A stretch of DNA of 64,000 nucleotides, taken from NCBI GenBank assembly GCA_035575715.1, contig DATLXN010000011.1, positions 6,354-70,353 on the forward strand. Direction: 5' to 3'. Every line of letters starts with the position of its first letter. The first letter of the stretch is position 1. Source of the stretch: Vicinamibacterales bacterium. Lineage in GTDB: Bacteria > Acidobacteriota > Vicinamibacteria > Vicinamibacterales > UBA2999. The notes below the pieces were generated by a model. It was not told the DNA's origin. It did no database searches and worked only from the letters and a program-made list of their open reading frames with translations. Below are positions 4,057 to 52,306 of this stretch, in pieces. The position numbers and the translations under genes are program-made.

Positions 4057-6086
4057 AACGCATTCTGTCGGCTCTTGCGTTGGCGTTGATGCCGACGCTC
4101 ATCGCGGCCCAGTCACCCGCCTCCGATCGCCTGACCGTCGACCTCTATCTCGAATACGAGACCGTGTCCGAGCCGCAGTTGTCACCTGACGCGTCCCAGA
4201 TCATCTATACCCGCCAGTGGGTCGACAAGCAGAACGACCGGCGCGAATCGTCGCTGTGGGTGATGAACGCCGACGGCTCGAAGAATCGCTTCCTGGTCCG
4301 CGGTAGCGGCGCCAGATGGTCGCCTACCGGCGACCGCATTGTCTACACCGCGCAGGGCGAGCCACGCGGCACGCAGATCTTCGTCCGTTATATGGACGCC
4401 GAAGGCGCCGCGTCGCAGATCACCCGCGTCGACAAAGCCCCAACGGCGTTCGCGTGGTCACCGGACGGGACCAAGATCGGCTTCGCGATGAACGTCGAGG
4501 CCAAGAACGCCTGGCCAATCAAAATGCCGCGCGCCCCCGAAGGCGCCAAGTGGGTCGAGACCCCGCGCATCGTCGAACGCCTCGACTACCGCTCTGACGG
4601 CACCGGCTACGACGATGACGCGTATCGACACATTTTTGTGGTGCCGGCCACTGGTGGCACGCCACGGCAGCTGACCGACGGCGACTGGAATCACAACGGC
4701 GTGACCTGGACGCCTGACAGCAAACAAATCCTGTTTGGCTCGATGCGCGTCGCGGACGCGGAATATCAGTGGCGCGAGTCGGATATCTACTCAGTGCAGG
4801 TCGACACCGGCGCGATCAAACAATTGACCACGCGCAAGGGCCCTGACGGTAATCCGGTAGTGTCCCCGGACGGCAAACGCGTCGCCTACACCGGCAACGA
4901 TTGGTCAAAGGACACCTGGCAGGACAGCAAGCTCTATGTGATGAATATCGATGGCACCAACCATCGCTTGATCTCAGGGACCTGGGATCGCTCGCCACAG
5001 AGCGTGATGTGGAAGCCCGACGGCAACGGCGTCTACTTCACCGCACAGGATCAGGGCTCGCAGAATCTCTACTTCCTGCCCATGGCCGGCGAACGGACCG
5101 ACGACGTGCAGTCGGTGACGCGCGGCACGCACATGCTGACCACGTCGAGTGTGGCCAGGGGCAAAGCGGTGGGGGTGTTGACCTCGCCGTCACTACCGCC
5201 CGACATCGTCGCATTCGACATTGCCGCGCCGCAGCAGATGAAGCAGTTGACCAATGTCAACGAAGACATCCTGGCCGGCAAGAAGCTCGGCGAGGTGAAG
5301 GAGATGTGGTACACCTCGGCCGACGGCCTGAAGATTCAAGGCTGGTACATCACGCCGCCGGACTTCGATGCAGCGAAGAAGTATCCGATGCAGCTGCATA
5401 TTCACGGGGGCCCGCACAGCATGTACGGCGTCGGCTTCAATTACGGCTGGCAGGAACACGCGGCCAACGGCTACGTGGTCCTTTACACCAATCCGCGTGG
5501 CAGCACCGGCTACGGCAGTTCGTTCGGCAACCAGATCATGCGTGCGTATCCGAGCAAGGATTATGACGATTTGATGGCCGGCGTCGACGAACTCCTGAAA
5601 AAGGGATTTGTCGATCCGCGCAACATGTTTGTCACCGGCTGCAGCGGCGGCGGCGTGCTGACTGCGTGGATCGTCGGAAAGACCGATCGATTTGCCGCGG
5701 CGTCGGCAAACTGCCCGGTCATCGACTGGATGAGTTTTGTCGGCACCACCGACGGCGCCAGCTGGTACTACAACTTCGAGAAGCTGCCGTGGGAGGATCC
5801 GTCGGAACATATCCGGCGATCGCCGCTGACCTACGTCGGCAACGTCAAGACGCCGACGATGCTGATGACCGGCGTGCAGGATTTGCGGACGCCAATGCCG
5901 CAGACCGAGCAGTTCTACAGCGCGTTGAAATTACGCAAGGTCCCGACGGCGATGATTCGCTTCAACGACGAGTGGCACGGCACGACGTCGAGGCCGTCAA
6001 ACTTCATGCGGACGCAGTTGTACTTGCGGCATTGGTTCGACAAGTACAAGCGGATGCCGGTGACCACGTCCACCGCACAACAATAA
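4053..6086 (+). CDS. secreted S9-family serine peptidase (beta-propeller plus prolyl-oligopeptidase-type catalytic domain)
   Basis: Signal peptide MKRILSALALALMPTLIAAQ. TolB-like propeller repeats (SPDGxxI). Nucleophile elbow GCSGGG, with downstream acidic and His candidates (DLRTP, EWHG). ATGA overlap with the upstream regulator gene. Confidence 0.8.
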   Translation: MKRILSALALALMPTLIAAQSPASDRLTVDLYLEYETVSEPQLSPDASQIIYTRQWVDKQNDRRESSLWVMNADGSKNRFLVRGSGARWSPTGDRIVYTAQGEPRGTQIFVRYMDAEGAASQITRVDKAPTAFAWSPDGTKIGFAMNVEAKNAWPIKMPRAPEGAKWVETPRIVERLDYRSDGTGYDDDAYRHIFVVPATGGTPRQLTDGDWNHNGVTWTPDSKQILFGSMRVADAEYQWRESDIYSVQVDTGAIKQLTTRKGPDGNPVVSPDGKRVAYTGNDWSKDTWQDSKLYVMNIDGTNHRLISGTWDRSPQSVMWKPDGNGVYFTAQDQGSQNLYFLPMAGERTDDVQSVTRGTHMLTTSSVARGKAVGVLTSPSLPPDIVAFDIAAPQQMKQLTNVNEDILAGKKLGEVKEMWYTSADGLKIQGWYITPPDFDAAKKYPMQLHIHGGPHSMYGVGFNYGWQEHAANGYVVLYTNPRGSTGYGSSFGNQIMRAYPSKDYDDLMAGVDELLKKGFVDPRNMFVTGCSGGGVLTAWIVGKTDRFAAASANCPVIDWMSFVGTTDGASWYYNFEKLPWEDPSEHIRRSPLTYVGNVKTPTMLMTGVQDLRTPMPQTEQFYSALKLRKVPTAMIRFNDEWHGTTSRPSNFMRTQLYLRHWFDKYKRMPVTTSTAQQ

Positions 6087-27805: not shown

Positions 27806-28858
27806 GTGCGCTACCTACTGGCCAGCCTGCTCGTTGTCTCCACTCTGAGCGCGCAGACGACCCCTGCTGCGCAGCCGCACCCGGAGGCGACTCAGGCCGC
27901 GGTCGCCGCCTACATGTGCCCGATGCACCCCGATGTCATGTCAGCGGTGCCCGGCAAGTGTCCGCGCTGCAACATGGATCTGGTGCCGGTCCCGGCCAGC
28001 GCGTATGTCTGCCCGATGCACCCCGACGTCATGTCGGCCACGCCAGGCACCTGCCCACGCTGCAATATGACGCTCATTGCCGGCAGCCCGATCACCATGC
28101 CGGATTTCCGGCTGCATCTGGAGACGACTCCCAAGGTGATCAAAGCGGGACAACCGACGAAATTTCGCTTTACCGTCCGGCATCCGCTCACCGGTGCGCC
28201 GGCGCGTGAGTTTGCGACGCTGCACGACAAGCTGTTCCACCTGTTCGTCATCAGCCGCGACATGAATGAGTTCGCGCACATTCATCCCGAACATCATCCG
28301 GATGGATCGTTCACGATCGAGCACACGCTCCCCAAGCCGGGACACTACACGCTGTTCTCTGATTTCCTGGCAATCGGCGGCGGCGCGCAGATCGTCGCCA
28401 CACCGATCGTCACTGCCGGCGTCGAGCCCGACATCATGGCGTCGCAGGCGCGTTTGCAGCCGGATCTGCCATGGACGCGAGTTGTTGATGGCGTGACGGT
28501 GGATCTGCTCAACGAGCCGACGACGTTTCTCGGCGGCGAAGAGATTGATCTGGTGTTCCGCTTCAGGAACTCCGCCAATGAAACACCGATCACCGACCTG
28601 GAACGCTATTTAGGCGCCTGGGGACACCTGCTGATTCTCAGCGAGGACATGACCGAATACGTTCACGCTCATCCGCGCGAAGAGACGCAGCCGGAAGCCA
28701 CGGTCCCCACCTCTGGCGGCCCCGAGGTGATCTTCGACGCGCTGCTGCCCAAGCCTGGCCGCTATCGGGCGTGGCTACAGTTCCAGCGGCAGGGCAAACT
28801 GACGACCGTATCGTTTACGTTTGCCGCACCACGGCCGGGCGAAACGCCGCAGTCCTGA
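27806..28858 (+). CDS. periplasmic heavy-metal-binding protein: two tandem CPMHP...CPRC motifs plus two YtkA/FixH-like His-rich domains
   Basis: Signal peptide present. Y(M/V)CPMHPDVMSAxPGxCPRCNM occurs twice, at nt 27911-27988 and 28004-28078. It is followed by FAHIHPEHH and YVHAHPRE segments. Confidence 0.65.
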   Translation: MRYLLASLLVVSTLSAQTTPAAQPHPEATQAAVAAYMCPMHPDVMSAVPGKCPRCNMDLVPVPASAYVCPMHPDVMSATPGTCPRCNMTLIAGSPITMPDFRLHLETTPKVIKAGQPTKFRFTVRHPLTGAPAREFATLHDKLFHLFVISRDMNEFAHIHPEHHPDGSFTIEHTLPKPGHYTLFSDFLAIGGGAQIVATPIVTAGVEPDIMASQARLQPDLPWTRVVDGVTVDLLNEPTTFLGGEEIDLVFRFRNSANETPITDLERYLGAWGHLLILSEDMTEYVHAHPREETQPEATVPTSGGPEVIFDALLPKPGRYRAWLQFQRQGKLTTVSFTFAAPRPGETPQS

Positions 28859-29878: not shown

Positions 29879-32800
29879 ATGACCACCCCCCCACCCAACC
29901 TCGTCACCCGACTCCTGCTCGACTGGAGTGCTGGAGATAAAGAGGCCTTCGACCAGCTGGTCCCGCTGGTTCATGAGGAACTGCGGCGATTGGCCGAAGG
30001 CTACATGCGTCGCGAGCCCGCCGGGCACACGTTGCAACCGACGGCGCTCGTGAACGAGGCCTACCTTCGCCTGGTCGACCAGCGCCGGATGCGGTGGCAG
30101 GATCGCGCCCACTTCTTTGCCATTTCGGCGCAGATGATGCGTCGCATTCTTGTCGACCACGCACGCAAGCGCCGCTACGCCGAACGCGGTGGCCCCGACG
30201 CGATCAAGATGAACCTCGACGAAGCCCTCGACTTCTCTCAGGGACGCGCCGCTCACGTCGTCGCACTGGACAATGCGCTCAGCCAGCTCGCCAAGGTCGA
30301 CCCGCAACATGGCAAGGTCGTCGAGCTGCGATTTTTTGGTGGATTGACGATCGAGGAGACCGCTGACGTGCTCGGATTGTCGCGCGACAGGGTCAAGCGC
30401 GAGTGGGCGACTGCGAAAGAGTGGCTAACGCGGGAGCTCACCGCGCAGACGGCGGAAGGTAGCGAACCGGTCAGTGCTCAGAAGACCGGGCCTTACGAGA
30501 TCCTCGAGCAGCTGGGCGCCGGTGGAATGGGCGAGGTTTTCCTCGCGCATGACAGTCGCCTCGGGCGCAAGGTCGCGCTCAAGCTGCTCCCCTCCTACTT
30601 CATCAACGACGGGGAGCGGTTGCAGCGCTTTCAGCAGGAGGCCAGTGCCGCGTCGCGGCTGAATCATCCGAACATCGTCACCATCTACGAAGTCGGGCAG
30701 CTCGATTCCGGTCCCTACATTGCGACTGAGTACATCGACGGCGTGACGTTGCGCGCATGGATGGAACAGAAGCACCTGAGCGTCAGCGATGCGATTGACG
30801 CCGCGCTGCAAGTCGCCTCCGCTCTGGCGGCCGCGCATGCCGCGGGCATTGTCCATCGAGACATCAAGCCCGAGAACATCATGGTGCGGCGCGATGGCTT
30901 GTTCAAGGTGGTCGACTTCGGACTCGCCAAGCTGACCGAACCGGGAGTTGCACCGATTTCGCCGGACCTGGCGGCGACCAAGCGGCTGCTGTTCAAGACC
31001 GATCCCGGCACGGTGATGGGCACGGTGATCTACATGTCGCCGGAACAGGCACGTGGCTGGGTCGTCGACGCGCGCACCGACATCTGGAGCCTTGGGGTCG
31101 TGCTCTACGAAATGGTCGCCGGTCAGCCACCGTTTGACGGCGGCAGTGTCGCGGACATCCTGGTGTCGATTCTCGACCGCGGCGCGCCGCCACTGACCCA
31201 TCCTGGTGGCGTCCCACCTGAACTCGCGCGCGTCGTTGCGAAGGCGCTGCACAAGGATCAGGAGCAGCGCTACGCGCAGGTCGACGATCTGATGCGGGAT
31301 CTGCGCGTGCTTCAACAGGATCTCAGCTTCGCCGAGCAGTTGCGGCGCAGCACCCAGGGTGAATCGATCGCCCCGGAGACGCCCGCGATCGAGACGGCCG
31401 CGCCAGAGGCGTCGGGGCGTCGCGCGCATAACTTCTCCACGCAGCGGAGCACCCTCATCGGTCGCGACACCGAACTGGCCCTGCTCAACACGCGGCTGCG
31501 GGACGACGAGGTGCGTCTGGTGACCCTGACCGGGCCCGGCGGTACCGGCAAGACGCGGTTGGCGTTGCAGGCGGCGGGCGATGTGGTCGACGCGTTCGAT
31601 CACGGCGTCGTCTTCGTGGCGCTGGCTGCCATCAGTAATCACGAGGTCGTCGCGTCGGCGATTGCTCAAGCGCTGGGGGTTCAGGAGACCCGCGAGCGAA
31701 CGTTCGCGGCTGGGCTGATCAACTATCTGCGCGATAAAACGATGCTGCTGGTGTTGGACAACTTCGAGCAGGTGGCGCCAGCCTCGCTTCTGGTCGCGGA
31801 CCTATTGGCGTCCTGTCCACAGGTCAAAGTGCTGGTCACCAGCCGCGCCCCGTTGCAGCTGTCCGACGAGCGGGAATTTCAGGTGCCGCCGCTGGCCCTG
31901 CGACAAGCAGAAGTCCTGTTCGTGCAGCGGGTCATGGCGGCTAAGCCGCAGTTCGCGTTGACCACCGACAGCGCGCGCGTGATCAGTGAAATCTGCGCAA
32001 GGCTCGACGGGCTCCCGCTGGCGTTGGAACTGGCGGCGACGCGTATCAAGCTGCTGTCGCTGGAAGAAATCTCGGCGCGGCTTAACCAGCCGCTGCAGCT
32101 GCTGCAGGGCGGAGCCAAAGATTTGCCGCCGCGCCAGCAAACCATGCGCGCCACGATTGCATGGAGCTATGACTTGCTCAGCGACGACGCACAAATGTTG
32201 TGGCGCCGGCTGTCGGTGTTCGTCGGCGGCTTCACGCTGGCCTCGGCAGAGGCGGTGTGCAGCGACATCAACGGCGTGACCATTGCGGTGCTCGATGCGC
32301 TCGAGTCGTTAGTGGACGAGAGCCTGGTCCAGCGCAAGGACATCGGCGACGGCACCTATCGCTTCCTGATGTTGGAGACCATTCGCGAATACGGACTGGA
32401 GCGCCTCGCGGCGAGCGGCGAGACCGCCCAATTGCGACGGCAGCATGCGATGTTCTGCGTTGACCTCGCGGAGGACGCAGAGCGGCATCTGCGGAGCGTG
32501 AGGCGCGATCCGTGGCTGGCGAGGCTCGAAAGCGAACATCACAATATCGGCGCGGCGCTCCGCTGGACGCTCGACAACGATGAGACCGAGATGGGCCTGC
32601 GGCTGGTCGGTGCTCTGCGCTGGTTCTGGTATCACCGCGGGCATATTGGTGAGGGATATCACTGGGCCACCGCGTTGCTCGCACGACAAGACGCGACGGC
32701 GTCTGTCAAGGCCAGAGCCAACGCCTTATACGCCGCCGGAAGTCTGGCGTTCTATTACAGCGATCCCACTGCCGCCGGCGCGTTACTCAGGGAAAGTGCA

Positions 32801-33367
32801 GTGCTGTGGCGAGCACTCGGCGACCGTCAATCGCTCGCCTATGCGCTGACCTTCACCAGCCTGCCGATTCACCTCGGCGAACGGGATTTCCCTGAGGCGC
32901 GCACCACTGCTGAAGAGGCGGTAGCGCTGTTCAGGACTCTCGATGATCCGTGGGGGCTGGCGTTGTCGCTCAATTACGCCGGCATCATCCTCTGGACCGA
33001 ACCGGGGGCCGAACAACAGGCGACGGCGATGCTCAAGGAGAGCGTGTCGTTGTTTCGTGGCCTTGGCGATGGCTGGGGTGTCGGCGGGGCCGCTCTTTAT
33101 CTCGGCGGCATGCACCAGGACCGCGGCGAAGTTCAGGAAGCGCGGGCGTTGTACGAAGAGTTCGTTGCAGTGATCCGTGAGTCGAAGGATCTGTGGCGGC
33201 TGGCGTCCGGCTTGGAGATCCTTGCGTCGTTACTCCGCGACGAAGGAGAAGACGCACGCGCCGACGCCTTGACTGAGGAGAGCACCACACTGCAACGCAA
33301 GCTGGGCCGATCGCTCAGTCTCAAGAAGGCGTGGGATCAGATGAAACTCGCTCGGCAACGCAGCTGA
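29879..33367 (+). CDS. multidomain fusion: ECF-type sigma factor, Ser/Thr protein kinase, STAND/AAA NTPase, TPR repeats
   Basis: Sigma part, aa 1 to about 190: LLLDWSAGDKEAFDQLVPLVHEELRRLA and RFFGGLTIEETADVLGLSRDRVKREW. Kinase part: GAGGMGEV, VALK, HRDIKPEN, DFGLAK, SPEQ. NTPase part: Walker A GPGGTGKT (31532-31555) and Walker B LLVLDN. The C-terminal 450 aa or so are TPR-like. One continuous 1162-codon ORF. Confidence 0.8.
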   Translation: MTTPPPNLVTRLLLDWSAGDKEAFDQLVPLVHEELRRLAEGYMRREPAGHTLQPTALVNEAYLRLVDQRRMRWQDRAHFFAISAQMMRRILVDHARKRRYAERGGPDAIKMNLDEALDFSQGRAAHVVALDNALSQLAKVDPQHGKVVELRFFGGLTIEETADVLGLSRDRVKREWATAKEWLTRELTAQTAEGSEPVSAQKTGPYEILEQLGAGGMGEVFLAHDSRLGRKVALKLLPSYFINDGERLQRFQQEASAASRLNHPNIVTIYEVGQLDSGPYIATEYIDGVTLRAWMEQKHLSVSDAIDAALQVASALAAAHAAGIVHRDIKPENIMVRRDGLFKVVDFGLAKLTEPGVAPISPDLAATKRLLFKTDPGTVMGTVIYMSPEQARGWVVDARTDIWSLGVVLYEMVAGQPPFDGGSVADILVSILDRGAPPLTHPGGVPPELARVVAKALHKDQEQRYAQVDDLMRDLRVLQQDLSFAEQLRRSTQGESIAPETPAIETAAPEASGRRAHNFSTQRSTLIGRDTELALLNTRLRDDEVRLVTLTGPGGTGKTRLALQAAGDVVDAFDHGVVFVALAAISNHEVVASAIAQALGVQETRERTFAAGLINYLRDKTMLLVLDNFEQVAPASLLVADLLASCPQVKVLVTSRAPLQLSDEREFQVPPLALRQAEVLFVQRVMAAKPQFALTTDSARVISEICARLDGLPLALELAATRIKLLSLEEISARLNQPLQLLQGGAKDLPPRQQTMRATIAWSYDLLSDDAQMLWRRLSVFVGGFTLASAEAVCSDINGVTIAVLDALESLVDESLVQRKDIGDGTYRFLMLETIREYGLERLAASGETAQLRRQHAMFCVDLAEDAERHLRSVRRDPWLARLESEHHNIGAALRWTLDNDETEMGLRLVGALRWFWYHRGHIGEGYHWATALLARQDATASVKARANALYAAGSLAFYYSDPTAAGALLRESAVLWRALGDRQSLAYALTFTSLPIHLGERDFPEARTTAEEAVALFRTLDDPWGLALSLNYAGIILWTEPGAEQQATAMLKESVSLFRGLGDGWGVGGAALYLGGMHQDRGEVQEARALYEEFVAVIRESKDLWRLASGLEILASLLRDEGEDARADALTEESTTLQRKLGRSLSLKKAWDQMKLARQRS

Positions 33368-33458: not shown

Positions 33459-34607
33459 TTACCGACGTGCGACGGTAAGCCAGGTCTGCGCTTTCGCCGT
33501 GATCGGCTGATCGGTGAGGTTATCGAAGTAGGTGTTCACTACCAGCCGTGTGCCGATCGGTAGCGGCACAGGGGCCGATAAGTAATATGGCGAGCGCCAC
33601 TCGGGACGGAAGTCCTTGACCCATAGCAACGGCGTGACCACCCCGTCGGGCGTCGTCGCAATGACTTCAATTGACCGCGCGCCCGCACTCGGCGCCGGCC
33701 ACAGCGCCAGCGCCGACGACGCGGTGGCCAGCTTCATTTCGCTGCGCACGCGATGGCTCGAACTCCCCGCGGCGAGGGTCTGGCTTGCGCCGCCAAGCGA
33801 TAGCGCCTCGACCACCCGATCGGTGCCGGCGCCGAAGTACAGGCCGATCTCACTGATGTCAGTCACGGTTTCTTCGGCTCCGCTGTAGCCGATCTCCACG
33901 ATGATCTGCGCGCCTGCCGGCAGCCGCAAGGCGGTGCCTTCGGGCAGATGCGTCGTGGTCTGCCACGGCGTCCACGCGCCCAGCCAGCGCCCGTTGCCGG
34001 ACTCATAGAAGGCGGCGTGGCGCACGACGCGTCGATCACCCTGCTTCAAGCCAATTGCATGAACGCGGCGCGGTGCGGTCAATCCGGTCGCCACCACGAA
34101 GCGCTTGACCTCGAATGGAGACGACGCTGCAACGACCTGGCCTTTGCCCACCGCGATGACCTGATCAGGGGGGCCGTGATCCCACAACGGTGCTGGCGGG
34201 ACATAGACCGGTGGGATGCCCTCATCAGCCTTGAGCACGCCACTGGGCGCCCCGCCGTCGGCCCACGACAGGATGATCTCCATCTCACGCGCGGTCAGGC
34301 TGATGTCGTTGGAGAAATGACCATAGCCGGGCACCGCCGTCCACGGTGGCATGCGGCGTTCGAGGATCTCTTCGCGAATCGCGCGCGCCCATGGCCTGGC
34401 GTCGGTGTAGGTGAGCAGCGACACGCCGAGATTGCGCTCGGTGTGGCACTGGAAACACTTGCGCTGGAAAATCTGCGCGATCTCGTTGCGGAACTGGACG
34501 CTGGTGGTAATTGGCTTGTGCGGGTACGCGGGCGTGGGAAAGGCAAGAACCACGGCCAGCAGACCCAGCGCGGCGACGCAAGCGTAGGTGAATATCTTCC
34601 CAGTCAT
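33459..34607 (-). CDS. heme-c domain protein fused to a degenerate PHM/DBH-like (copper monooxygenase) fold
   Basis: TM/signal segment, then CFQCH heme motif and MPPW. The C-terminal part aligns by eye with the upstream paralogue but lacks its HH, HxH and Met copper ligands. Confidence 0.55.
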   Translation of the reverse strand: MTGKIFTYACVAALGLLAVVLAFPTPAYPHKPITTSVQFRNEIAQIFQRKCFQCHTERNLGVSLLTYTDARPWARAIREEILERRMPPWTAVPGYGHFSNDISLTAREMEIILSWADGGAPSGVLKADEGIPPVYVPPAPLWDHGPPDQVIAVGKGQVVAASSPFEVKRFVVATGLTAPRRVHAIGLKQGDRRVVRHAAFYESGNGRWLGAWTPWQTTTHLPEGTALRLPAGAQIIVEIGYSGAEETVTDISEIGLYFGAGTDRVVEALSLGGASQTLAAGSSSHRVRSEMKLATASSALALWPAPSAGARSIEVIATTPDGVVTPLLWVKDFRPEWRSPYYLSAPVPLPIGTRLVVNTYFDNLTDQPITAKAQTWLTVARR

Positions 34608-34640
34608 CAGTTACTCACCTTACACCGACGATCCACAGAA

Positions 34641-34677
34641 GCACGGAAGCACGAAATGACTTTCCGTGTTTCCGTGC
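34641..34677. repeat. hairpin built from CACGGAA/TTCCGTG words
   Basis: The left arm GCACGGAAGCACGAAA spans 34641-34656 and the loop is TGAC. The right arm TTTCCGTGTTTCCGTGC spans 34661-34677. TTCCGTG occurs at 34662 and 34670. The hairpin lies between the two cytochrome/monooxygenase genes. Confidence 0.8.
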
Positions 34678-34701
34678 CTCGAAGACCGTCGTCGGGCTGC
34701 G

Positions 34702-36057
34702 CTACTGCTGCGGTTGCGCAGTGGTCGTGACGCGGTCCTTATCGACGCTGTACATCACGCCGGTGTACTGCATCTCTTCCCAGGTCTGGTCGCCCCAGTA
34801 GACCGGTTGCGTTGAATCCGGATTCGCTTTGTTCGCTTTGGAGTTGTCGTAGTGGGCGACCGCCTTCAACACCGAACCTTTCGGGATCCGCAGCGGCTGC
34901 GCAAACGCGTAATCGGTCTGCCAGTTGAAGTCGTAGTTCGGCACCGACAGGATCACTTCGTTGCGTCCATCGGGATGAGTCAGCCGGTACTCCCACTGCT
35001 TGCCGCGCACGTGCGTATGCGGCGCAATGCTGTAGACGGTGACGTCCTCGAGAAACTCGAGGCCGGATTCAACCGGATGATTGGCTTCGCCCGCGGGGAT
35101 CATGAACCGCGGGTTGACCATCGCCGCGGCGCGCACTTCCGACGCCGGCGCCTGCGTCGCGAACTTGAAGCCAATGCTGGTTGTGTCGGTCGATGGCTTG
35201 CCGTTCGAGGTGTAGTGAATCTGGAACGTCAATACCGACCCAGCCTGCAGCAACATCGCGGTCCCCGGCGGGAAGACCGTGGCGTTGGTGCCGGGCGCGA
35301 TCTGCGCGATCAGCGGACCGCGGCTGGTCCCCTGGTTCGGGGCGCCGCCGCGGGCCTTCGCTGCTTCCATTTCTTTGATCATCGTCGGCGACAGGGGACC
35401 GCCGGGAGGATTGGCCTGACGGAAGGCCGGCGCGCGCCGGGTCATCTTTGGCGGCCGCGCATAGACCAGCACGTGATGGACGACCGAACGATCACCCGGT
35501 CGAATCTCCATCGCCTGAACCCACTTATCCTCGGTGAGATTAGTCGGCATCTCGAAATACTGGTAGTCGATCGTGCCCTGAGCGGGCACCGCGTACGGCG
35601 TGGCCATGCCGACCACGGCGTCGGGCTGACCGATCGTCCAGCCCTTGGCAAAGGACGGCAGCTGCGGGAGGTCCTTCTGGTCACCCTTTGGCGAACCGGC
35701 GGCGACCCACCGGGTGATCGTCTCTTTCTCGGCGGTCGTCAGTCGGCGCTCGTTGAGAAACTTGCCGTGCGCCGGATCGGCGTGCCACGGCGGCATGGTG
35801 CCGTTGACGACGTTGTCACGGATCGAGCGCGCCCACGGGCGCGCCTCGTCGTAGGTGATCAGTGACATTGGAGCCACTTCGCCCTCGCGATGACAGCTCA
35901 CGCAGTGCTTGTACAGGATCGGCGCGACATCCTTTGCGAAGGTTGGAGCCGCTGCCGCTCGAGCGCCCTGCGCCTCAGGCCGGCCGGGGGATACGACCAG
36001 TGAGCCAAACAGGAACACGCCGAACGCCGCCGAAAACCGGCCGAACAGATGGGTCAT
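34702..36057 (-). CDS. heme-c domain fused to a type-II copper monooxygenase-like domain (PHM/DBH family pattern)
   Basis: Signal peptide present. Heme-c motif CVSCH, with APM and MPPWHADP. Candidate copper ligands VVHHVLVY, FQIHYT, APHTHVRG (HxH) and EEMQY. YDFNWQ is also present. These match my recall of the PHM CuH (H,H,H) and CuM (H-x-H, M) sites. Confidence 0.6.
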   Translation of the reverse strand: MTHLFGRFSAAFGVFLFGSLVVSPGRPEAQGARAAAAPTFAKDVAPILYKHCVSCHREGEVAPMSLITYDEARPWARSIRDNVVNGTMPPWHADPAHGKFLNERRLTTAEKETITRWVAAGSPKGDQKDLPQLPSFAKGWTIGQPDAVVGMATPYAVPAQGTIDYQYFEMPTNLTEDKWVQAMEIRPGDRSVVHHVLVYARPPKMTRRAPAFRQANPPGGPLSPTMIKEMEAAKARGGAPNQGTSRGPLIAQIAPGTNATVFPPGTAMLLQAGSVLTFQIHYTSNGKPSTDTTSIGFKFATQAPASEVRAAAMVNPRFMIPAGEANHPVESGLEFLEDVTVYSIAPHTHVRGKQWEYRLTHPDGRNEVILSVPNYDFNWQTDYAFAQPLRIPKGSVLKAVAHYDNSKANKANPDSTQPVYWGDQTWEEMQYTGVMYSVDKDRVTTTAQPQQ

Positions 36058-36138
36058 AGGGAGTACCTCGAGGTTGTCCCCGATGGTACGATCCTCCAGC
36101 CCGGCTGTCTACGGCTACCGGTCATTTAAGCTAGTCCG

Positions 36139-36888
36139 GTGCCGCAGCCCTCTGACTACCGCCCGCTGACCTGTGCGCAATGCCGTGAAGGCCTTGGGCT
36201 CGACTTCACGTTCAGCATGGCCTTTCAGCCCATAGTCAACACGACGACCGGCGTAGTCTTCGCGCAGGAAGCGCTGGTCCGCGGGCTGGACAATGAGCCG
36301 GCCAGTCACATTTTCAGCTTCGTCAACGACACCAACCGCTATCGCTTCGATCAGGCCTGCCGGGTCGAGGCGATCCGGCTCGCGGCCAGCCTTGGTGTCG
36401 AATCAGCCCTGTCGATTAACTTTCTGCCCAACGCGGTCTATCGACCCGAGCTCTGTATCCGGACGACCCTCGAAGCTGCCGCCACTTACAGTTTTCCGAT
36501 CGACCGGATCATCTTCGAAATCACCGAGGTCGAGCGCGTCGCTGACAACGGGCATCTGCGGGAGATCGTCCAGTACTACCAACAGCGCGGGTTCAAGACG
36601 GCGCTTGATGACTTCGGCGCGGGCTATGCCGGCCTCAACCTGCTTGCCGAATTTCAGACCGATTTCCTGAAGCTCGATATGGCGCTGGTCCGCGGCCTCA
36701 ATGCTGACCGCACCCGCCGCGCCATCGTCAACAGCATTGTTCGGCTGTGTCGGGAGCTGCACATCGAACCGATCGCCGAAGGCGTTGAAACCGGCGAGGA
36801 GCTTGCGGTGCTTCAGGACTTTGGCGTCGAACTTTTTCAAGGTTATTACTTCGCTCGGCCCACCTTTCAATCACTGGCATCCCTATGA
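36139..36888 (+). CDS. stand-alone EAL-domain protein (c-di-GMP phosphodiesterase)
   Basis: EALVRG, FLPNAV, FEITE, DDFGAGYAGLNLL, LKLD, EGVE and QGYYFARP. All catalytic EAL motifs are present. GTG start; no sensor or GGDEF domain. Confidence 0.8.
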   Translation: MPQPSDYRPLTCAQCREGLGLDFTFSMAFQPIVNTTTGVVFAQEALVRGLDNEPASHIFSFVNDTNRYRFDQACRVEAIRLAASLGVESALSINFLPNAVYRPELCIRTTLEAAATYSFPIDRIIFEITEVERVADNGHLREIVQYYQQRGFKTALDDFGAGYAGLNLLAEFQTDFLKLDMALVRGLNADRTRRAIVNSIVRLCRELHIEPIAEGVETGEELAVLQDFGVELFQGYYFARPTFQSLASL

Positions 36889-38291
36889 CCACTACTCGCC
36901 TGCTGACCTCGTCGATCGCCGTGTTGTTGTTGTGCATCACCCCTGCGGCTGCCGCCTCGCGGACGATGCGGGTGGACTACTTCCACACCGGCAACGCGAC
37001 GCAGGAGATTTACAGTCTCGACCGCGTCGTGATCGAGCCGGCCGAGTGGCCGGGCGATCCACGGAAGACCCTCGATCGGACCAATCTCGGAAAGTATTTG
37101 TTCGAGGTGCGTGACGCCGCATCCGGGAATGTGCTGTTCTCGCGCGGTTTCGCGTCGATCTACGGCGAGTGGGAAACCACCGACGAGGCTAAGGCGATGC
37201 ACCGCACGTTCCACGAATCGCTGCGTTTTCCCGAGCCAGCGGCACCGGTGCGCATCGTGATTCGGAAGCGTGACGCGCAGAACCAGTTCGCGGATGCCTG
37301 GACAACCACGATCAATCCGAAGGACATGTTCGTGGACACGGCGCGGCCGCCGTCGCCCGGGGCGGTAATCGCGCTGGAGAACAACGGCGATCCGACAAGC
37401 AAGGTCGATGTGCTGTTGATGGGCGATGGTTATACCGCGGCCGAACGTCCAAAGTTCGAACGCGACGCGCGTCGATTCGTCGAGATCCTCTTTGCCACCT
37501 CGCCGTTCAAAGAACAACGGCGTCAGTTCGACGTCTGGGGCATCGTGCCGGCGGCCGCGGAGTCCGGCATCTCGCGCCCATCCACCGGCGTCCATCGGGC
37601 GTCGCCGTTAGGCGCCACCTATGACGCGTTCGGATCGGAACGCTACGTCCTGTCGTTCAACAACCGCGCGATGCGCGAAGCGGCGAGCTTCGCGCCGTAT
37701 GAGTTCGTCGAAGTGCTGACCAACACGCGGACCTATGGCGGTGGCGGGATTTTTGGTCTGTACGGCACGGTCGCGGCGGACAGCGAGCAGGCGCCGTACG
37801 TGTTTATCCATGAGTTTGCGCACCACTTTGCGGCGCTGGCCGACGAGTACTACACCTCACCGGTCGCCTATGCGCCCGCACCCGCGACGCGGGTCGAACC
37901 GTGGGAGCCGAACGTCACCGCACTTCTCGACCCCGCCACCTTGAAGTGGCGCGACCTGGTCGCGCCGGGCACGCCGCTCCCGACACCGTGGCTCAAAGAC
38001 GAGTTCGAACGCGAGTCACGTGCCTATGGCGCACGGCGCGCCAGGATCCGCGCCGACAATCGGCCGGAGGAGGAGATGGAAGCGCTGTTCCGCGACAACC
38101 GGACGTTTGAGTTGACGTTATTTGGCCGCGAGACACACGCCGGCAAGGTCGGCGCATTCGAGGGCGCGAACTACGAGGCCAAAGACTACTTCCGCCCCGA
38201 AGTCGACTGCATCATGTTCACGCGGAGCCAGGCGTTTTGCGCGGTGTGCCGGCGGGCACTCGAAGCCGTGATCGCCTTATACGCGGCCTAG
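36885..38291 (+). CDS. M64-family (IgA-peptidase-like) zinc metallopeptidase, secreted
   Basis: Signal peptide present. N-terminal MRVDYFHTGN-type domain. Zinc motif HEFAHHFAALADEY. ATGA overlap with the EAL gene. Confidence 0.75.
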   Translation: MTTTRLLTSSIAVLLLCITPAAAASRTMRVDYFHTGNATQEIYSLDRVVIEPAEWPGDPRKTLDRTNLGKYLFEVRDAASGNVLFSRGFASIYGEWETTDEAKAMHRTFHESLRFPEPAAPVRIVIRKRDAQNQFADAWTTTINPKDMFVDTARPPSPGAVIALENNGDPTSKVDVLLMGDGYTAAERPKFERDARRFVEILFATSPFKEQRRQFDVWGIVPAAAESGISRPSTGVHRASPLGATYDAFGSERYVLSFNNRAMREAASFAPYEFVEVLTNTRTYGGGGIFGLYGTVAADSEQAPYVFIHEFAHHFAALADEYYTSPVAYAPAPATRVEPWEPNVTALLDPATLKWRDLVAPGTPLPTPWLKDEFERESRAYGARRARIRADNRPEEEMEALFRDNRTFELTLFGRETHAGKVGAFEGANYEAKDYFRPEVDCIMFTRSQAFCAVCRRALEAVIALYAA

Positions 38292-38368: not shown

Positions 38369-38393
38369 GACGACCGACCACCGACGACCGACC
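38369..38393. repeat. 3.5 tandem heptamers GACGACC GACCACC GACGACC GACC
   Basis: Read directly from the sequence. Same family and orientation as the 30-unit array at 39937-40146. It runs into the stop codon (38393-38395) of the minus-strand hydrolase gene. Confidence 0.85.
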
Positions 38394-39916
38394 TATTGTC
38401 GCGTCGTCGGATTCTGTTTTTTCTTCGTCGCGAAAAACTCAAACATCCCGGCCAGGTTCGGCACGACCACGTCGCTGTGGCCGCCGCCGGGGACTTCGAT
38501 GTAGACGTGATCGACCTCCTGCGTCTTCATCTCGGCCACCATGCCGCGGGAGCCGCCGACCGGGACCGTCGGGTCGTTGTCGCCGTGCACGACAAACTGC
38601 GGGATGTGCTTCATTCGCACCACGCTGGTCGGTGCGCCGGTGCCGGCAAAGGTTCCAAGCGCCGCCCAGATATCCGGGTACTTCGCAGCGAGGAACCAGG
38701 TGCCGATCGCGCCCATTGAGTGGCCCATCAGGAAGATGCGTGAGTCGTCGACTTTGAAATCACGGCGCATCCGCGCCAGCACCTGCATCACATCCTGTTC
38801 GCTGAATTCCTGCTTGCGCTTCGACGCGGCGTCGCTGCCATAGCTGAAGCCGTAGAAGCCGTCCACGCGGTAGCCGAGTGGGGACACCGCGATGAAGCCG
38901 TGCTTCTCCGCGAGTTCAGGCACGCGCTTGGCGTAGTTGTCCATCATGCCATCTTCGTTCCCCCCCAAACCATGGAGCGCGACAACCAGTGGCGCCGGTT
39001 TGGCCGGGTTGTAGGTCGACGGGACGTAGACGCGGTAGGGCATGATCTCGCCGGCCACTTCGAGCAGATAGTGGCGTTCGAAGTCGCCGGTGCGGTTGGC
39101 AAACGGATCCTTGCCGCCGTTCGCGGCGGCGGCAATGGTCTCGGCGGCAGCCAACTCTTTGGCCAGGTCGAACTGACTCAACTCCATCGTGCCGCGGTTC
39201 ACTTTGCGCAGGTAGTCGGCCGGGTAGCGGATGTCGGCGCGCACATTGTCGGCAGCGGCAAGCGCCGCCTTCTCCAACGCGGCCAGCCGCGACTCGAGCC
39301 CTTTCTGCACAGCGATACGCAGGCTCGCGGTGCCCAGCTTGGCGGCCCCATCGCTCACGTCGACATCGAGCATGTAAGCGCCGTCGGGTACGGCCGACAG
39401 ATCGAGTTCCATGTGCAGCGGCATGTCGCGCAGATCACGACTGACGTCGCTGAAGTCCGCGATTGGCTTCAGGTCACCGGCGCCGGCCGGCGCCGCCAGC
39501 AGTGGCCGCACGGTTGCGCGTGCCGTCAGCGGGCTGGCCAACTGCATGACCGGCGCAAAGATCTGCTCGAGCCGGACGTGATACGGCAGTGATGAGTCGA
39601 CGAACTGCCGCTCGCTGCGCAGGATCAGTGACTGATCGAAGTCATCGGCGTCGGTCCACGGCCGCTTGTTGAGCAGGGCCATCCCCTTGGCGATCTGGCG
39701 CCGCATCTCCGCCGTCCGGCCAAGACGCATCGCCTCGGCGATCTCTTTGTCGATCGCATCGATGGCGATCTTCAATTCGCCGTCAGGCTTGACGCGATTC
39801 TTGAGTGAGTTGTAGCCAACGCGCGCGAGTGCGGCGTTGGGCGGCGCCTGGGCAAAGGCTGGCGCCGATAAGGCGAGGGCAACCGCTGCGATGGTGACAA
39901 GACGGGCAATGCGCAT
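38393..39916 (-). CDS. secreted alpha/beta hydrolase (esterase/peptidase type) with an N-terminal domain of about 270 aa and unknown function
   Basis: Signal peptide MRIARLVTIAAVALALSAPAFAQ. C-terminal motifs VVALHGLGGNED, GHSMGAIG (nucleophile elbow) and HGDNDPTVP. SD GGGAG lies on the minus strand at 39921-39925. Confidence 0.7.
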   Translation of the reverse strand: MRIARLVTIAAVALALSAPAFAQAPPNAALARVGYNSLKNRVKPDGELKIAIDAIDKEIAEAMRLGRTAEMRRQIAKGMALLNKRPWTDADDFDQSLILRSERQFVDSSLPYHVRLEQIFAPVMQLASPLTARATVRPLLAAPAGAGDLKPIADFSDVSRDLRDMPLHMELDLSAVPDGAYMLDVDVSDGAAKLGTASLRIAVQKGLESRLAALEKAALAAADNVRADIRYPADYLRKVNRGTMELSQFDLAKELAAAETIAAAANGGKDPFANRTGDFERHYLLEVAGEIMPYRVYVPSTYNPAKPAPLVVALHGLGGNEDGMMDNYAKRVPELAEKHGFIAVSPLGYRVDGFYGFSYGSDAASKRKQEFSEQDVMQVLARMRRDFKVDDSRIFLMGHSMGAIGTWFLAAKYPDIWAALGTFAGTGAPTSVVRMKHIPQFVVHGDNDPTVPVGGSRGMVAEMKTQEVDHVYIEVPGGGHSDVVVPNLAGMFEFFATKKKQNPTTRQ

Positions 39917-39936
39917 GTGACTCCCTCTGATCGATT

Positions 39937-40146
39937 GGCGATTGGCGATTGACGACCGACGACTGACGACTGACGACTGACGACTGACGACTGACGACTG
40001 GCGATTGACGACCGACGACTGGCGATTGACGACCGACGACTGACGACCGACGACTGACGACTGACGACTGGCGACTGGCGACTGGCGACTGGCGATTGGC
40101 GATTGGCGATTGGCGATTGGCGATTGGCGATTGGCGACCGACGACC
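39937..40146. repeat. 30-unit heptanucleotide tandem array, consensus GRCGAYY
   Basis: Counted by hand in one unbroken register. Units are GGCGATT x10, GACGACT x11, GACGACC x5, GGCGACT x3 and GGCGACC x1, arranged in homogeneous blocks. The array fills 210 of the 254 nt between divergent start codons. Confidence 0.95.
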
Positions 40147-40170
40147 GGCAGTGTGATAGGTTCCCGCCAA

Positions 40171-40677
40171 ATGATCAACAAAGCGCTGACTGTCGGGGTA
40201 TTGGCTTTGGTCACGGCTGTTGCCACGGGGGCCCAGGGTCCCGCCGCACCATCGGCGACCACCGAGACGCAACGCAAATTCGTCGGCCATTGGCGGCTAT
40301 TGAAGTTTGAAAATTTCGACGAGAAAGGCGTGGCGCGGCTGGCCGGCTACGACGGTGGACGGATCATCTATGACGACGCCGGCAACATGTCGGCGCAGCT
40401 GATGCGATCCGAACGCAAACTGATGGCTCAGCTCTCCACAGAAGCTGAACGCGCCGCTGCATACGCCACCTACACCGCGTACTACGGGAAGTACACCATC
40501 GACAGCAGCGCAGCAAGGGTCACGCATCACGTCGAAGGTTCGGTCAATCCGAACTGGGTCAAGACCGACCTGGTGCGCTATTACGCCTTCTCCAACAGCG
40601 ACAACACGATGACGTTGTCGATCAAGAACGCCGAGGGTCGGATCACCGGCACGCTCACGTGGGAGCGTTTGCGGTAG
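40171..40677 (+). CDS. lipocalin-like domain protein, secreted
   Basis: The start was set to ATG 40171 (MINKALTVGVLALVTAVATGAQG). The track ORF start at 40096 lies inside the heptamer array. FVGHWRLLKFENFDEKG is typical of lipocalin-like domains. Confidence 0.6.
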   Translation: MINKALTVGVLALVTAVATGAQGPAAPSATTETQRKFVGHWRLLKFENFDEKGVARLAGYDGGRIIYDDAGNMSAQLMRSERKLMAQLSTEAERAAAYATYTAYYGKYTIDSSAARVTHHVEGSVNPNWVKTDLVRYYAFSNSDNTMTLSIKNAEGRITGTLTWERLR

Positions 40678-50042: not shown

Positions 50043-50411
50043 ATGACCAAATTCACAGTGCTGCTCGTGGCACTCGTCCTGTTCGCTGCCCCCGTCTCGG
50101 CGCAGAAGTCCGACCTCACCGGCCAATGGGCTGTCGACGTGCAGACTGATGCCGGGAGCGGGTCGCCTGTCTTCGTGCTGAAACAGGTCGACGACAAACT
50201 CACCGGCACTTACAAAGGTACCCTCGGCGAGGCCAATGTCACCGGCACCGTCTCCGGCAAGACGTTCAAGATTACCTTCAATATCGATGCGCAAGGCACC
50301 GCGCTGGCAGTCGTCTACGACGGCGAGATCGACAGCAGCGACGCGATCAAAGGCCGTGTCGATCTGGGCGGGCTCGGCAGCGGCACCTTTACCGGGAAGC
50401 GCAGCAAATGA
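50043..50411 (+). CDS. small secreted hypothetical protein
   Basis: The start was set to ATG 50043 (MTKFTVLLVALVLFAAPVSAQ). The 122-aa protein is beta-rich. It is tightly packed between the TPR and dehydrogenase genes, and its stop overlaps the next ATG. Confidence 0.55.
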   Translation: MTKFTVLLVALVLFAAPVSAQKSDLTGQWAVDVQTDAGSGSPVFVLKQVDDKLTGTYKGTLGEANVTGTVSGKTFKITFNIDAQGTALAVVYDGEIDSSDAIKGRVDLGGLGSGTFTGKRSK

Positions 50412-52306
50412 GCGCGCGCAGATTCGGGCTCGTCGCCCTGATCGCCACTACGTTGGTCTTCGCGATTGTCGCGCGGACGGCGCTGACCGCCGAACAAGGC
50501 AAGCCAGTCGGCACCGCAGGTCTCTCCTTGCCGGCCGGCGAACTGGGGGGCGCGCTCTATACCGAGCGGTGCGCTGCCTGTCATGACGCGCCCGACACGT
50601 CGCGCGCCCCGTCACGGCAGAACCTCAGCGCACGAACCGTCGCGCAGATCGTCGCCGCCCTCTCTCCGGGCGGCGTCATGGCGGTCCACGGCGACAAAAT
50701 GTCAGCGCCAGAGAAGCACGCGGTCGCGACTTTCTTGTCTGCCGCGAGCGCCGCGGCTCCCGGTGCCGCTGCGGCCTCTGCGGATCCCGCGGTGGGCAGC
50801 TGCCCGGCCAATCCACCGATCCCGGACCTCGCATCGCTGCCGGCCTGGAACGGCTGGGGCAACGACGCGGCCAATACCCGCTTCCAGCACGCCCAGGCGG
50901 CAGGCCTCAGCGCGGGTGATGTCCCTCAGCTGACCCTGAAGTGGGCGTTTGCCTTCGCCGGATCAACGGCGGCATCCGGCCAGCCGACCATTGCCGCGGG
51001 GCGCGTCTTCGTCGGCAACAGCAACGGCATGGTCTACTCGCTCGACGCCAAGACCGGCTGCACCTACTGGACCTTCAAAGCGGATGGTGGCGTGCGTGTG
51101 TCGCCAAGCATCGCGCGCGTTGCTATCGGCGGCACGCAGCGGGCCATCGCGATGTTCGGTGACGTCCGCGCCACCGCCTACGCCGTCGATGCCCAGACCG
51201 GCACGATGGTGTGGAAGTTGAAGGTCGACGACCACGCCTTCGCGCGCATCACCGGCGCACCGTCATACGCCAATGGACGTCTTTACGTGCCCGTGTCTTC
51301 GGTCGAAGAAGTCTCGGGAGGACGTCCGTCCTACCAGTGCTGCACTTTCCGCGGCAGCGTCGTCGCCCTCGACGCCGCAACCGGCAAGCAGCTCTGGAAG
51401 ACCTACATGATTCCTGAGGCGCCGAAGATCGTCGGCAAGAATTCCGCTGGTACATCGCTGTGGAAAGATGCCGGCGTTGCGATCTGGACGTCGCCGACGC
51501 TCGACGTCGCGAAGAACATGATTTACGTCGCGACCGGCAACGCCTACACCAGTCCCGCAGCGCCGACCAGCGATGCGGTGGTCGCCCTCGATATGGCCAG
51601 CGGTGCGATTCAATGGGTTCAGCAAGCGACGCCGAATGATGTCTACGTGATCGGCTGCAAGCCGGGTGTCGAGAACTGCCCCGATGACGTCGGACCCGAT
51701 TTCGACTTTGGCAACTCGCCCATCCTGCGGGCGTTGCCCGGTGGCCGGCGCGTACTGACGCTCGGACAAAAGTCGGGCATGGTCTACGGCATGGATCCCG
51801 ACAACAAGGGAAAAGTCTTGTGGCAGATGCGCGCCGGCAAAGGCGGCGAACTCGGCGGCATCGAATGGGGCTCGGCCGCAGATGAACAGAACGTCTACAT
51901 TCCAGTCTCCGACGTTCTGCGTCCCGCAGGCGAAGCGGGCGGCCTCTACGCCTATCGATTAGCCACCGGCGAACAGGTCTGGCACACGCCAGCGCCGGCC
52001 CTGGCGTGCACCGGCGGGCAGGGATGCACCGGGGCCCAGTCTGCGCCGGTCAGTGTCATGCCCGGGGTCGTGTTCTCAGGCTCCGTTGACGGCAACCTCC
52101 GTGCGTATGCGACCGCCGACGGCAAGATCATCTGGACGTTCAATACGATGCGGCCCTTCGAAACGGTCAACGGCGTCAAAGGCCAGGGCGGCTCGATCGA
52201 CGCCGCCGGTCCGGTCATCGCCGGAGGGATGGTGTTTACCAACTCAGGCTACGGCCAGTGGCGCGGCAAGCCCGGGAACGTCCTGCTGGCGTTTGGTTTG
52301 CCGTAA
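50408..52306 (+). CDS. quinohemoprotein-type dehydrogenase: N-terminal heme-c domain plus PQQ-like beta-propeller (polyvinyl-alcohol-dehydrogenase-like architecture)
   Basis: CAACH heme motif near the N-terminus. WNGWGNDAANTRFQ is present, with repeated propeller blades (VFVGNSNGMVYSLDAKTG, VVALDAATGKQLW, VVALDMASGAIQW, LYAYRLATGEQVW, LRAYATADGKIIW). Confidence 0.65.
   Translation: MSARRFGLVALIATTLVFAIVARTALTAEQGKPVGTAGLSLPAGELGGALYTERCAACHDAPDTSRAPSRQNLSARTVAQIVAALSPGGVMAVHGDKMSAPEKHAVATFLSAASAAAPGAAAASADPAVGSCPANPPIPDLASLPAWNGWGNDAANTRFQHAQAAGLSAGDVPQLTLKWAFAFAGSTAASGQPTIAAGRVFVGNSNGMVYSLDAKTGCTYWTFKADGGVRVSPSIARVAIGGTQRAIAMFGDVRATAYAVDAQTGTMVWKLKVDDHAFARITGAPSYANGRLYVPVSSVEEVSGGRPSYQCCTFRGSVVALDAATGKQLWKTYMIPEAPKIVGKNSAGTSLWKDAGVAIWTSPTLDVAKNMIYVATGNAYTSPAAPTSDAVVALDMASGAIQWVQQATPNDVYVIGCKPGVENCPDDVGPDFDFGNSPILRALPGGRRVLTLGQKSGMVYGMDPDNKGKVLWQMRAGKGGELGGIEWGSAADEQNVYIPVSDVLRPAGEAGGLYAYRLATGEQVWHTPAPALACTGGQGCTGAQSAPVSVMPGVVFSGSVDGNLRAYATADGKIIWTFNTMRPFETVNGVKGQGGSIDAAGPVIAGGMVFTNSGYGQWRGKPGNVLLAFGLP

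Follow-up and report, generated by a model that had tools for sequence, protein, structure and literature searches.

A 64,000-nucleotide stretch of the genome of a Vicinamibacterales bacterium, a soil acidobacterium (contig DATLXN010000011.1, positions 6,354 to 70,353; the whole stretch is hereafter called the window), contains two tandem genes, here named A and B, that combine a c-type heme domain with the fold of the copper monooxygenases PHM and DBH. Gene A (34702..36057, minus strand) is a 451-aa open reading frame (ORF) comprising a predicted signal peptide, a heme c domain and a PHM/DBH-type two-copper core. Gene B (33459..34607, minus strand) is a 382-aa ORF with a predicted signal peptide, a heme c domain and a PHM-fold core in which the copper sites are lost. 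We propose, with a probability of roughly 0.6, that A is a periplasmic PHM/DBH-type enzyme carrying two coppers and a heme c and working as a cytochrome-fed monooxygenase, with B as a heme-bearing partner that does no catalysis. The core itself is of a known type; what appears to be new here is its fusion, in a bacterial protein, to a cytochrome c, together with a conserved copper-less sister clade.

Both ORFs lie exactly where an earlier reading of the bare DNA (the original prediction) had placed them, and every motif quoted there is found in the translations: CVSCH, MPPWHADP, VVHHVLVY, FQIHYT, APHTHVRG, EEMQY and YDFNWQ in A, and CFQCH, MPPW, VVRHAAFY, VEIGYS and LALWPAP in B. The two proteins share 27% identity across 391 columns (BLASTP, E = 1e-43) and are clearly paralogues, as the original prediction had it. 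Their best database matches fall in Vicinamibacterales. GC content is uniform across the A–B region, and gene calling based on the GC content of third codon positions (GC3) selects both ORFs, the values of which (0.81 for A and 0.79 for B) resemble those of the neighbouring genes.

Protein A contains a predicted PHM/DBH-type two-copper core

The AlphaFold2 model of A, built from 101 sequences (pLDDT 87.1, pTM 0.84), consists of three N-terminal helices followed by two β-sandwich domains. When this model was compared with the PDB using Foldseek, the top 31 matches were all PHM or human DBH (E = 2e-13 to 2e-9, probability 1.00), with about 320 aligned columns spanning both domains and a TM score of 0.65 on the target, for a sequence identity of merely 14–17%; below these 31 matches, the scores fall to unrelated jelly-roll proteins. 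In Pfam, Cu2_monoox_C (PF03712) matches residues 338–436 of A with 24.3 bits, above the gathering cut-off of 23. Both results agree with the PHM/DBH-like fold put forward in the original prediction. The kinship is visible only by profiles and structure prediction, since a single-sequence search of A against the PDB and a search of NCBIfam with A gave no match.

The copper ligands of DBH are His262, His263 and His333 for the electron-transfer copper (CuH) and His412, His414 and Met487 for the O2-binding copper (CuM) (PMC4846438). A profile of family A, made from 46 diverse members, matches the DBH chain 4zel_A (numbered with an offset of +39 relative to published DBH numbering) with E = 1.2e-8. 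Because the alignments obtained in HMMER profile searches, with either the full-length protein or the C-terminal domain only, ended short of the Met ligand, we aligned the DBH/TBH family and carried out a profile–profile comparison: HHalign pairs the family-A profile with 24 DBH/TBH sequences over 260 columns (97.6%, E = 2.8e-12). In both the profile and the HHalign alignments, H194, H195 and H281 of A fall on the CuH ligands His262, His263 and His333, and H347 and H349 on the CuM ligands His412 and His414; HHalign alone extends to M429, which aligns with the Met of the DEMC motif, i.e. DBH Met487. Altogether, six residues of A superimpose on the six DBH ligands, so that the full ligand set claimed at the outset is recovered. 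The residues YDFNWQ, which had been described as typical of the copper monooxygenases, are indeed present but characterize the bacterial family: DBH shares only Y...[W/F]Q, the aligned stretch being HYSxHFQ.

The positions in question are strongly conserved. Among the 46 diverse relatives, none departs from C52, C55, H56, M88, H194, H195, H281 or M429, and H347 and H349 are each kept by at least 90%; in a set of 75 diverse representatives, these ten residues of the heme and copper sites likewise show either no variation or a conservation of at least 90%. We also surveyed 160 related loci (80 from genomes and 80 from metagenomes), where all ten residues are kept in every complete intact-type ORF, intact-type meaning an A-like copy with all six copper ligands. 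As for domain families, 29 of the 75 representatives match Cu2_monoox_C and five match Cu2_monooxygen (E ≤ 1e-3).

The CuH-type domain of A (35158..35640, minus strand; residues ~140–300) carries the H194–H195 pair at 35473–35478 and H281 at 35215–35217, and the CuM-type domain (34738..35157, minus strand; residues ~301–440) carries H347-x-H349 at 35011–35019 and M429 at 34771–34773. The HH motif is followed by a partly helical insertion of 45 residues (203–247), which is absent from B. As judged from sequence and predicted structure, A belongs to the group of PHM/DBH catalytic cores, since the fold and all six ligand positions match.

A c-type cytochrome domain precedes the CuH domain

The N-terminus of A reads as a predicted Sec signal peptide (35965..36057, minus strand; residues 1–31, with a putative cleavage site): a basic n-region and a hydrophobic stretch with a 12-aa Kyte–Doolittle maximum of 2.4 at residue 11 lead to ...EAQG, in a region modelled with a pLDDT below 50. 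Covalent attachment of heme c requires export. The cytochrome c domain follows (35683..35952, minus strand; residues 36–125), with C52-x-x-C55-H56 at 35890–35904 and M88 at 35794–35796, in the motif F-x-K-D-V-A-P-I-L-x-x-x-C-x-x-C-H ... M-P-P-W ... W-V-x-x-G. Three helices are predicted in this domain in both the A and B models, those of A covering residues 40–51, 69–84 and 108–119. Neither the CxxCH motif nor the Met of MPPW varies in A, B or any relative examined, and M88 is probably the sixth heme ligand. Two heme domains of known structure are also weakly matched by the family-A profile: 5c2v_A, from hydrazine synthase alpha (E = 5e-4), and 4rlr_A, from a small cytochrome c. The CxxCH motif, the distal Met, the predicted export signal and the predicted helices all point to a class I-like c-type cytochrome domain in both A and B.

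In A, the cytochrome domain sits immediately before the CuH domain, and the pTM of 0.84 suggests that the packing of the heme and CuH domains is fixed. As CuH is the electron-entry site of PHM and the cytochrome domain directly precedes it, the heme would be expected to feed CuH; a cytochrome could provide the two single electrons that PHM requires (PMC6123673).

Protein B belongs to a conserved copper-less clade

The model of B (pLDDT 87.3) retains the fold, the top 31 Foldseek matches in the PDB being again all PHM or DBH (E = 5e-11, rmsd 3.4–5 Å), but the ligands have gone: H194 of A is replaced with R196, H281 with G240 and the HxH pair with A305 and S307, and the chain stops before the Met. 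Of the HH pair, B of the window retains the second His (H197), which is not invariant across the clade. At the family level, B matches neither PF01082 nor PF03712 in Pfam, and a B-family profile does not significantly match the DBH family (HHalign probability 0.6%). The heme attachment motif C51-F-Q-C54-H55 (34443..34457, minus strand) is invariant in 74 B-family sequences, and M86 of MPPW lies at 34350–34352. Alignments, model and structural matches thus agree with the suggestion that B lost the ligands while keeping the heme motif and the overall alignment.

B has 740 homologues, with identities to B of 57–70% among the matches listed; the corresponding range for homologues of A is 58–74%, likewise among the matches listed. 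The B family has 70 invariant columns, and B-specific conserved residues include R169, R196, W208, W212, W215, R286, R288, W303, W329 and Y360. A neighbour-joining tree gathers 39 full-length copper-less proteins into one pure clade, apart from 70 intact ones; this is a single distance tree, in which long-branch attraction is possible. As far as this tree shows, B belongs to an old, single copper-less clade. Retention of the fold, loss of the ligands and apparent purifying selection characterize B as a pseudoenzyme-type paralogue, as far as sequences and models tell; its conservation (homologues and invariant columns), its intact frame and its membership of a single widespread clade argue that it is not decaying. 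A separate case is an A-like protein encoded at positions 266–1480 of locus L134 (355 bits to A), in which the CuH His-His pair reads Lys-Leu and the counterparts of H281, HxH and the Met are present; apparently one copper site was lost here in a sporadic event, outside the copper-less clade and independently of it.

Directly after its predicted signal peptide, B displays the clade signature H-K-P-I-T-T (34503..34520, minus strand; residues 30–35), in which H30, K31, P32 and T35 are conserved in 100% and I33 and T34 in 99% of the 74 B-family sequences, and which is absent from A and the other intact copies. Most copper-less subtypes, down to short forms of ~230 aa without the PHM core, have variants of the form H-[KDTV]-P-[IV]-[TS]-[TS], and Asp replaces the His in one subtype. 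In 63 of the 74 sequences, the residue at position -3 relative to the His is V, A or L and that at position -1 is S or T, which makes these compatible with the -3/-1 rule of signal peptidase I; the remaining 11, B of the window included, have P at -1. The model confidence of the signature region in B is low (pLDDT 50–63).

A and B are part of a large family that often forms arrays

Among 1.84 billion cluster representatives, 18,055 clusters are related to A at E ≤ 1e-3 and 3,508 at E ≤ 1e-30, the family clusters being counted at 50% identity. The genome matches come from Acidobacteriota (Vicinamibacterales, Blastocatellia and Bryobacterales/Terriglobia), Gemmatimonadota and Planctomycetota. 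In public records, members are named "cytochrome c", "thiol-disulfide isomerase" (probably because of the redoxin domain that some of them carry, see below) or hypothetical protein, and an automatic Cu2_monoox_C match is already attached to some of them. Other domains found in some relatives are EF-hands, esterase, GDSL-lipase, carbohydrate-binding (CBM48) and BlaR1-type membrane domains. Our literature searches, which left most subscription journals outside their coverage so that earlier work may exist, returned no paper on bacterial cytochrome c–PHM-like proteins.

Metagenome proteins of 283–323 aa annotated as "dopamine beta-monooxygenase" were considered as bacterial enzymes reduced to the core and were set aside, since the inspected locus looks eukaryotic. 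The protein at positions 5001–5852 of this locus (L167, protein P0428) and similar core-only proteins on long metagenome contigs are ~50% identical to human DBH; they are probably eukaryotic exons, the genes of L167 being sparse, fragmented and accompanied by a eukaryote-type DUF716.

More than one family ORF is present in 28 of the 80 genome loci, some of which have two to five intact copies, each ~40–50% identical to A, in a tandem array. A copper-less copy, full-length or short, is found in 20 genome loci, behind one to five intact copies, usually right after them and at the 3' end of the array (e.g. full-length in L029, L042, L053, L062, L071 and L076, and short in L017, L058 and L075). 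The A–B pair of the window is the minimal form of such arrays ending in a copper-less copy. Eight of ten informative metagenome contigs with a close B orthologue have an intact A directly upstream of it. On the genome side, the same order is found in OY970174.1, an acidobacterial genome of 5.35 Mb (see also genome locus L002). In Blastocatellia, head-to-tail arrays comprise three to five intact copies and a terminal copper-less one (L043, 1–7826; L062, 1229–8465; L076, 89–8737; L042, 2928–8598). Several of these last copies have His-Cys-His at the CuH positions and have lost the CuM site, raising the possibility of a different metal site, of the electron-transfer type.

Transcription and the A–B spacer

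The pair is divergent from an operon of an EAL gene (36139–36888) and an M64 peptidase gene (36885–38291), as originally described: the start of A lies 81 bp from the EAL gene, and the EAL and M64 genes overlap by 4 bp. A sigma-70-like promoter match (36083..36111, minus strand; TAGACA-17-TACCAT, 9/12) is located 25 nt upstream of the A start, which is weak evidence, as one match of this quality was found versus 0.4 expected.

The 94-nt spacer between A and B (34608..34701, minus strand) can form a long stem-loop with core arms at 34665–34676 and 34642–34653. RNA folding gives -44.2 kcal/mol (z = -5.4), a value that none of 200 shuffled sequences reached, and the element is single-copy within the window. 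No T-tract terminator was found between A and B. The spacer ranges from 0 to 136 nt in orthologous pairs, so the stem-loop cannot be universal. A role between the cistrons in processing, stability or attenuation is possible, and co-transcription of A and B with some attenuation or processing between the genes is plausible from the sequence.

Neighbourhood and other genes of the window

In a Pfam census of 103 immediate neighbours of 75 loci, no family occurred more than four times, the commonest being HAD (four), and no conserved partner, substrate-related, cop or cus gene was seen among the immediate neighbours examined. With its unconserved neighbours, the family behaves as a self-contained unit. 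A secreted HMBD-type protein, presumably copper-binding, is encoded within one to two genes of the family in five of 75 loci, a weak link to copper. The window contains one such protein ~4.6 kb from the A–B pair (27806–28858, plus strand; 350 aa), with two HMBD repeats (CPMHPDV...CPRCNM) and a His-rich β domain (FAHIHPEHH, YVHAHPRE). It is syntenic with A–B in L001, where it lies immediately downstream of B, and in L082, and similar proteins are close to family arrays in L017 and L020–L022; a part in periplasmic copper handling is possible. The gene between B and the HMBD/DUF3891 genes (29879–33367, plus strand) encodes a single chain of 1162 aa that combines ECF sigma factor, Ser/Thr kinase, NB-ARC ATPase and TPR repeats, and it has no counterpart there in the syntenic locus L001.

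PQQ propellers and an esterase adjoin some close orthologues of A (PQQ propellers in L083 and L085), without a general pattern. The window itself encodes a periplasmic enzyme in which an N-terminal cytochrome c (CAACH) is joined to a PQQ-type β-propeller (50408–52306, plus strand). We considered its heme domain as a relative of that of A, but comparison shows that the two are unrelated; this protein could be an electron source for A. Elsewhere in the window, a 7-bp tandem repeat (CTGACGA, 31 copies, 87% matches) at 39927–40145 starts 11 bp upstream of the start codon of a PHB-depolymerase-like esterase gene (38393–39916, minus strand) and accounts for spurious repeat-peptide ORFs at 39772–40290.

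A proposed mechanism

From these data we infer the occupancy by heme and copper, which way the electrons flow, the monooxygenase chemistry and the role of B, in the following model. A would be exported and would hold three cofactors, one covalent heme c (Cys52/Cys55, His56 and probably Met88) and two separate coppers, with CuH (H194/H195/H281) as the electron-transfer site and CuM (H347/H349/M429) as the O2-binding site. Single electrons would reach the fused cytochrome from the respiratory pool of the periplasm (soluble cytochromes c or similar) and go on to CuH, and CuM would then bind O2 and hydroxylate a C–H bond of a probably extracytoplasmic substrate. B, probably co-transcribed downstream of A, would keep the heme and the fold and would not activate O2 at PHM-type sites; it would most likely be a non-catalytic redox or structural partner of intact copies, as an electron relay, a docking subunit or a substrate-presenting subunit. 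To see the fused cytochrome as a built-in electron donor, and B as a non-catalytic partner, is a reasonable interpretation.

Counter-evidence and alternative explanations

Several observations weigh against this model. Of the domain families that the original prediction had invoked for A, Cu2_monoox_C is reached, but Cu2_monooxygen (PF01082) gives no match in Pfam, and no Pfam cytochrome family attains its gathering score on A or on B, Cytochrome_CBB3 scoring 20.7 and 22.1, respectively, against a cut-off of 27. The neighbour genes give no clue to a substrate, as the original prediction had remarked. A glycine-extended peptide is not expected to be the substrate: A has Ala345 two residues before the first CuM His and Gly433 four residues after the Met, at the offsets at which PHM presumably has its carboxylate-binding Arg and Tyr, and Ala345 stands in place of that Arg. 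Both columns are variable across the family. On the side of B, the notion that it always follows an intact copy is ruled out by two of the ten close orthologues, which have no intact copy nearby, and by a copper-less subfamily, 'RYG' (50–54% identical to B), around which up to 4 kb of sequence contain no intact copy; since this subfamily is solitary, the co-occurrence of intact and degenerate copies, a survey of which had been suggested, is frequent but not obligatory. The possible long-branch attraction in the tree counts on the same side. Finally, an N-terminal AhpC-TSA/Redoxin domain occurs in 33 of the 75 representatives and an N-terminal extension in 77 of 150 relatives. The redoxin-type extension has two conserved cysteines (GTxCP...GCxI; 88% and 84%) and no thioredoxin-type WCxxC (e.g. 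P0270, P0277 and P0333), so it looks peroxiredoxin-like rather than thioredoxin-like, and the presence of such a domain in about half of the relatives would fit peroxide or thiol chemistry equally well.

These extensions bear most directly on a reading in which A is a periplasmic oxidase or peroxide-handling enzyme, the electrons of the cytochrome, and in relatives those of a fused peroxiredoxin-like domain, serving to reduce O2, superoxide or peroxides at copper, or H2O2 being a co-substrate. PHM-type sites can run uncoupled and release H2O2, and lytic polysaccharide monooxygenases (LPMOs) can use H2O2 as a co-substrate; moreover, no substrate-related gene is conserved beside the family. We nevertheless hold this reading to be doubtful, if possible: a redoxin-like ORF was sought in the entire 64 kb and none was found, A and B themselves having no redoxin domain, the strict PHM/DBH ligand set including the CuM Met serves substrate hydroxylation in the known enzymes, and arrays of two to five intact paralogues, ~40–50% identical to A, resemble substrate diversification rather than detoxification. 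An idea that we consider unlikely is that B and its clade are not electron relays but metal-handling or maturation factors of the intact copies, with a new site built around the post-signal-peptide His, which could form an N-terminal 'histidine brace'. The near-complete conservation of the signature, its presence in most copper-less subtypes down to the short forms (which read A-x-A before the cut and HD after it), the agreement of 63 of the 74 sequences with the -3/-1 rule, the position of the clade at the 3' end of arrays and the HMBD copper-type proteins near several loci would all fit. However, the Pro at -1 in B of the window and ten others would normally block cleavage there, one subtype has Asp for His, the region is modelled with low confidence and no second ligand was identified; besides, His30 begins a sub-threshold match of B to Haem_bd (PF14376; 25.0 against 27, residues 30–58) and may belong to the heme domain, e.g. 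as an alternative heme ligand.

It is very improbable that A and B merely bind or buffer copper in periplasmic copper homeostasis, without turnover, despite six conserved metal ligands and the HMBD His-rich proteins that are syntenic in the window, L001 and L082 and lie beside the arrays of L017 and L020–L022. B has no copper ligands and is yet equally conserved, the conserved covalent heme motif would be left unexplained, two sites per 45-kDa protein make for poor storage, the ligand set is exactly that of catalytic PHM/DBH, and no cop or cus genes are conserved nearby. That B is a decaying duplicate without function, as its lost ligands and shortened C-terminus might indicate, is scarcely credible and is refuted by its conservation: an intact frame with a GC3 of 0.79, 740 homologues (57–70% identical among the matches listed), 70 invariant columns with B-specific Arg, Trp and His residues, a confidently predicted fold and a single widespread clade.

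Significance

The PHM/DBH literature that we found deals with eukaryotic, ascorbate-dependent enzymes of peptide-hormone and catecholamine synthesis, and the present locus displays the same core, complete in its six copper ligands and joined to a cytochrome c, in a bacterial family of huge size. Should the heme indeed pass electrons to the copper sites, A would provide a self-contained, easily expressed model for a long-debated problem, the arrival of electrons at the coppers and their transfer across the 11-Å gap, and the family would be a new class of oxygenases in abundant soil phyla, with possible roles in the breakdown of recalcitrant organic matter. The copper-less sister clade would serve as a natural control and as a testable case of a pseudoenzyme partner. 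A wider and more speculative view, to which we give little credence at present, is that soil and aquatic bacteria (Acidobacteriota, Gemmatimonadota and Planctomycetota) possess a large unrecognised class of ascorbate-free PHM/DBH-type C–H hydroxylases, wired to respiration by the fused cytochrome c, in which the substrate-diversified catalytic members of an array share one dedicated copper-less B-clade heme protein for electron entry or metal loading through its post-signal-peptide His.

Comparison with known systems

A resembles PHM in its two-domain β-sandwich core (the best Foldseek matches being 3mll, 1phm and 1opm), in the type of its ligand pattern, which is His-His...His at the electron-transfer copper and His-x-His...Met at the O2-binding one, and in its extracytoplasmic location, which for A follows from the predicted signal. 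It differs from PHM in having a heme domain and the 45-residue insertion after HH, and the identity is as low as 14–17%. PHM, for its part, has no heme domain, receives its electrons from ascorbate, in two single-electron deliveries, and holds its coppers ~11 Å apart across a solvent cleft (PMC6123673).

By sequence, the DBH/TBH/MOXD1 family is the closest to A (4zel_A, E = 1.2e-8; HHalign 97.6%), and the local motifs VHHM/VHHV, (E/Q)(V/I)HY, HTH(L/V)xG, Y...(F/W)Q and (D/E)EM are common to both. DBH has an extra N-terminal domain, DOMON; elsewhere, domains of this type bind heme b (PMC4846438). The DOMON domain of DBH has no heme ligands, whereas the extra domain of A is a class I-like cytochrome c with a covalent CxxCH site; the DBH-type dimerisation domain is absent from the bacterial proteins, and the host is a bacterium, not an animal. 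The electron donor of DBH is ascorbate, which is recycled by cytochrome b561.

The heme domains of A and B are reminiscent of Planctomycete-type cytochrome c/Haem_bd (PF14376) domains, with which they share the motif layout F..D(V/I).PI....C..CH ... MPP ... W...GA and which are likewise fused to large secreted proteins; A and B are only sub-threshold for Haem_bd and Cytochrome_CBB3. In the literature searched, again with most subscription journals outside its coverage, there was no PHM-type enzyme with a fused cytochrome c. There are, nonetheless, other copper enzymes in which a heme domain feeds the copper centre, such as cytochrome c-fused copper nitrite reductases and LPMOs, the copper of which is reduced by the cytochrome domain of cellobiose dehydrogenase. 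Although their copper domains (a cupredoxin trimer and the LPMO histidine brace) are unrelated to that of A and their chemistry differs, the design would be the same, namely the delivery of single electrons from a fused or docking heme to an extracytoplasmic copper.

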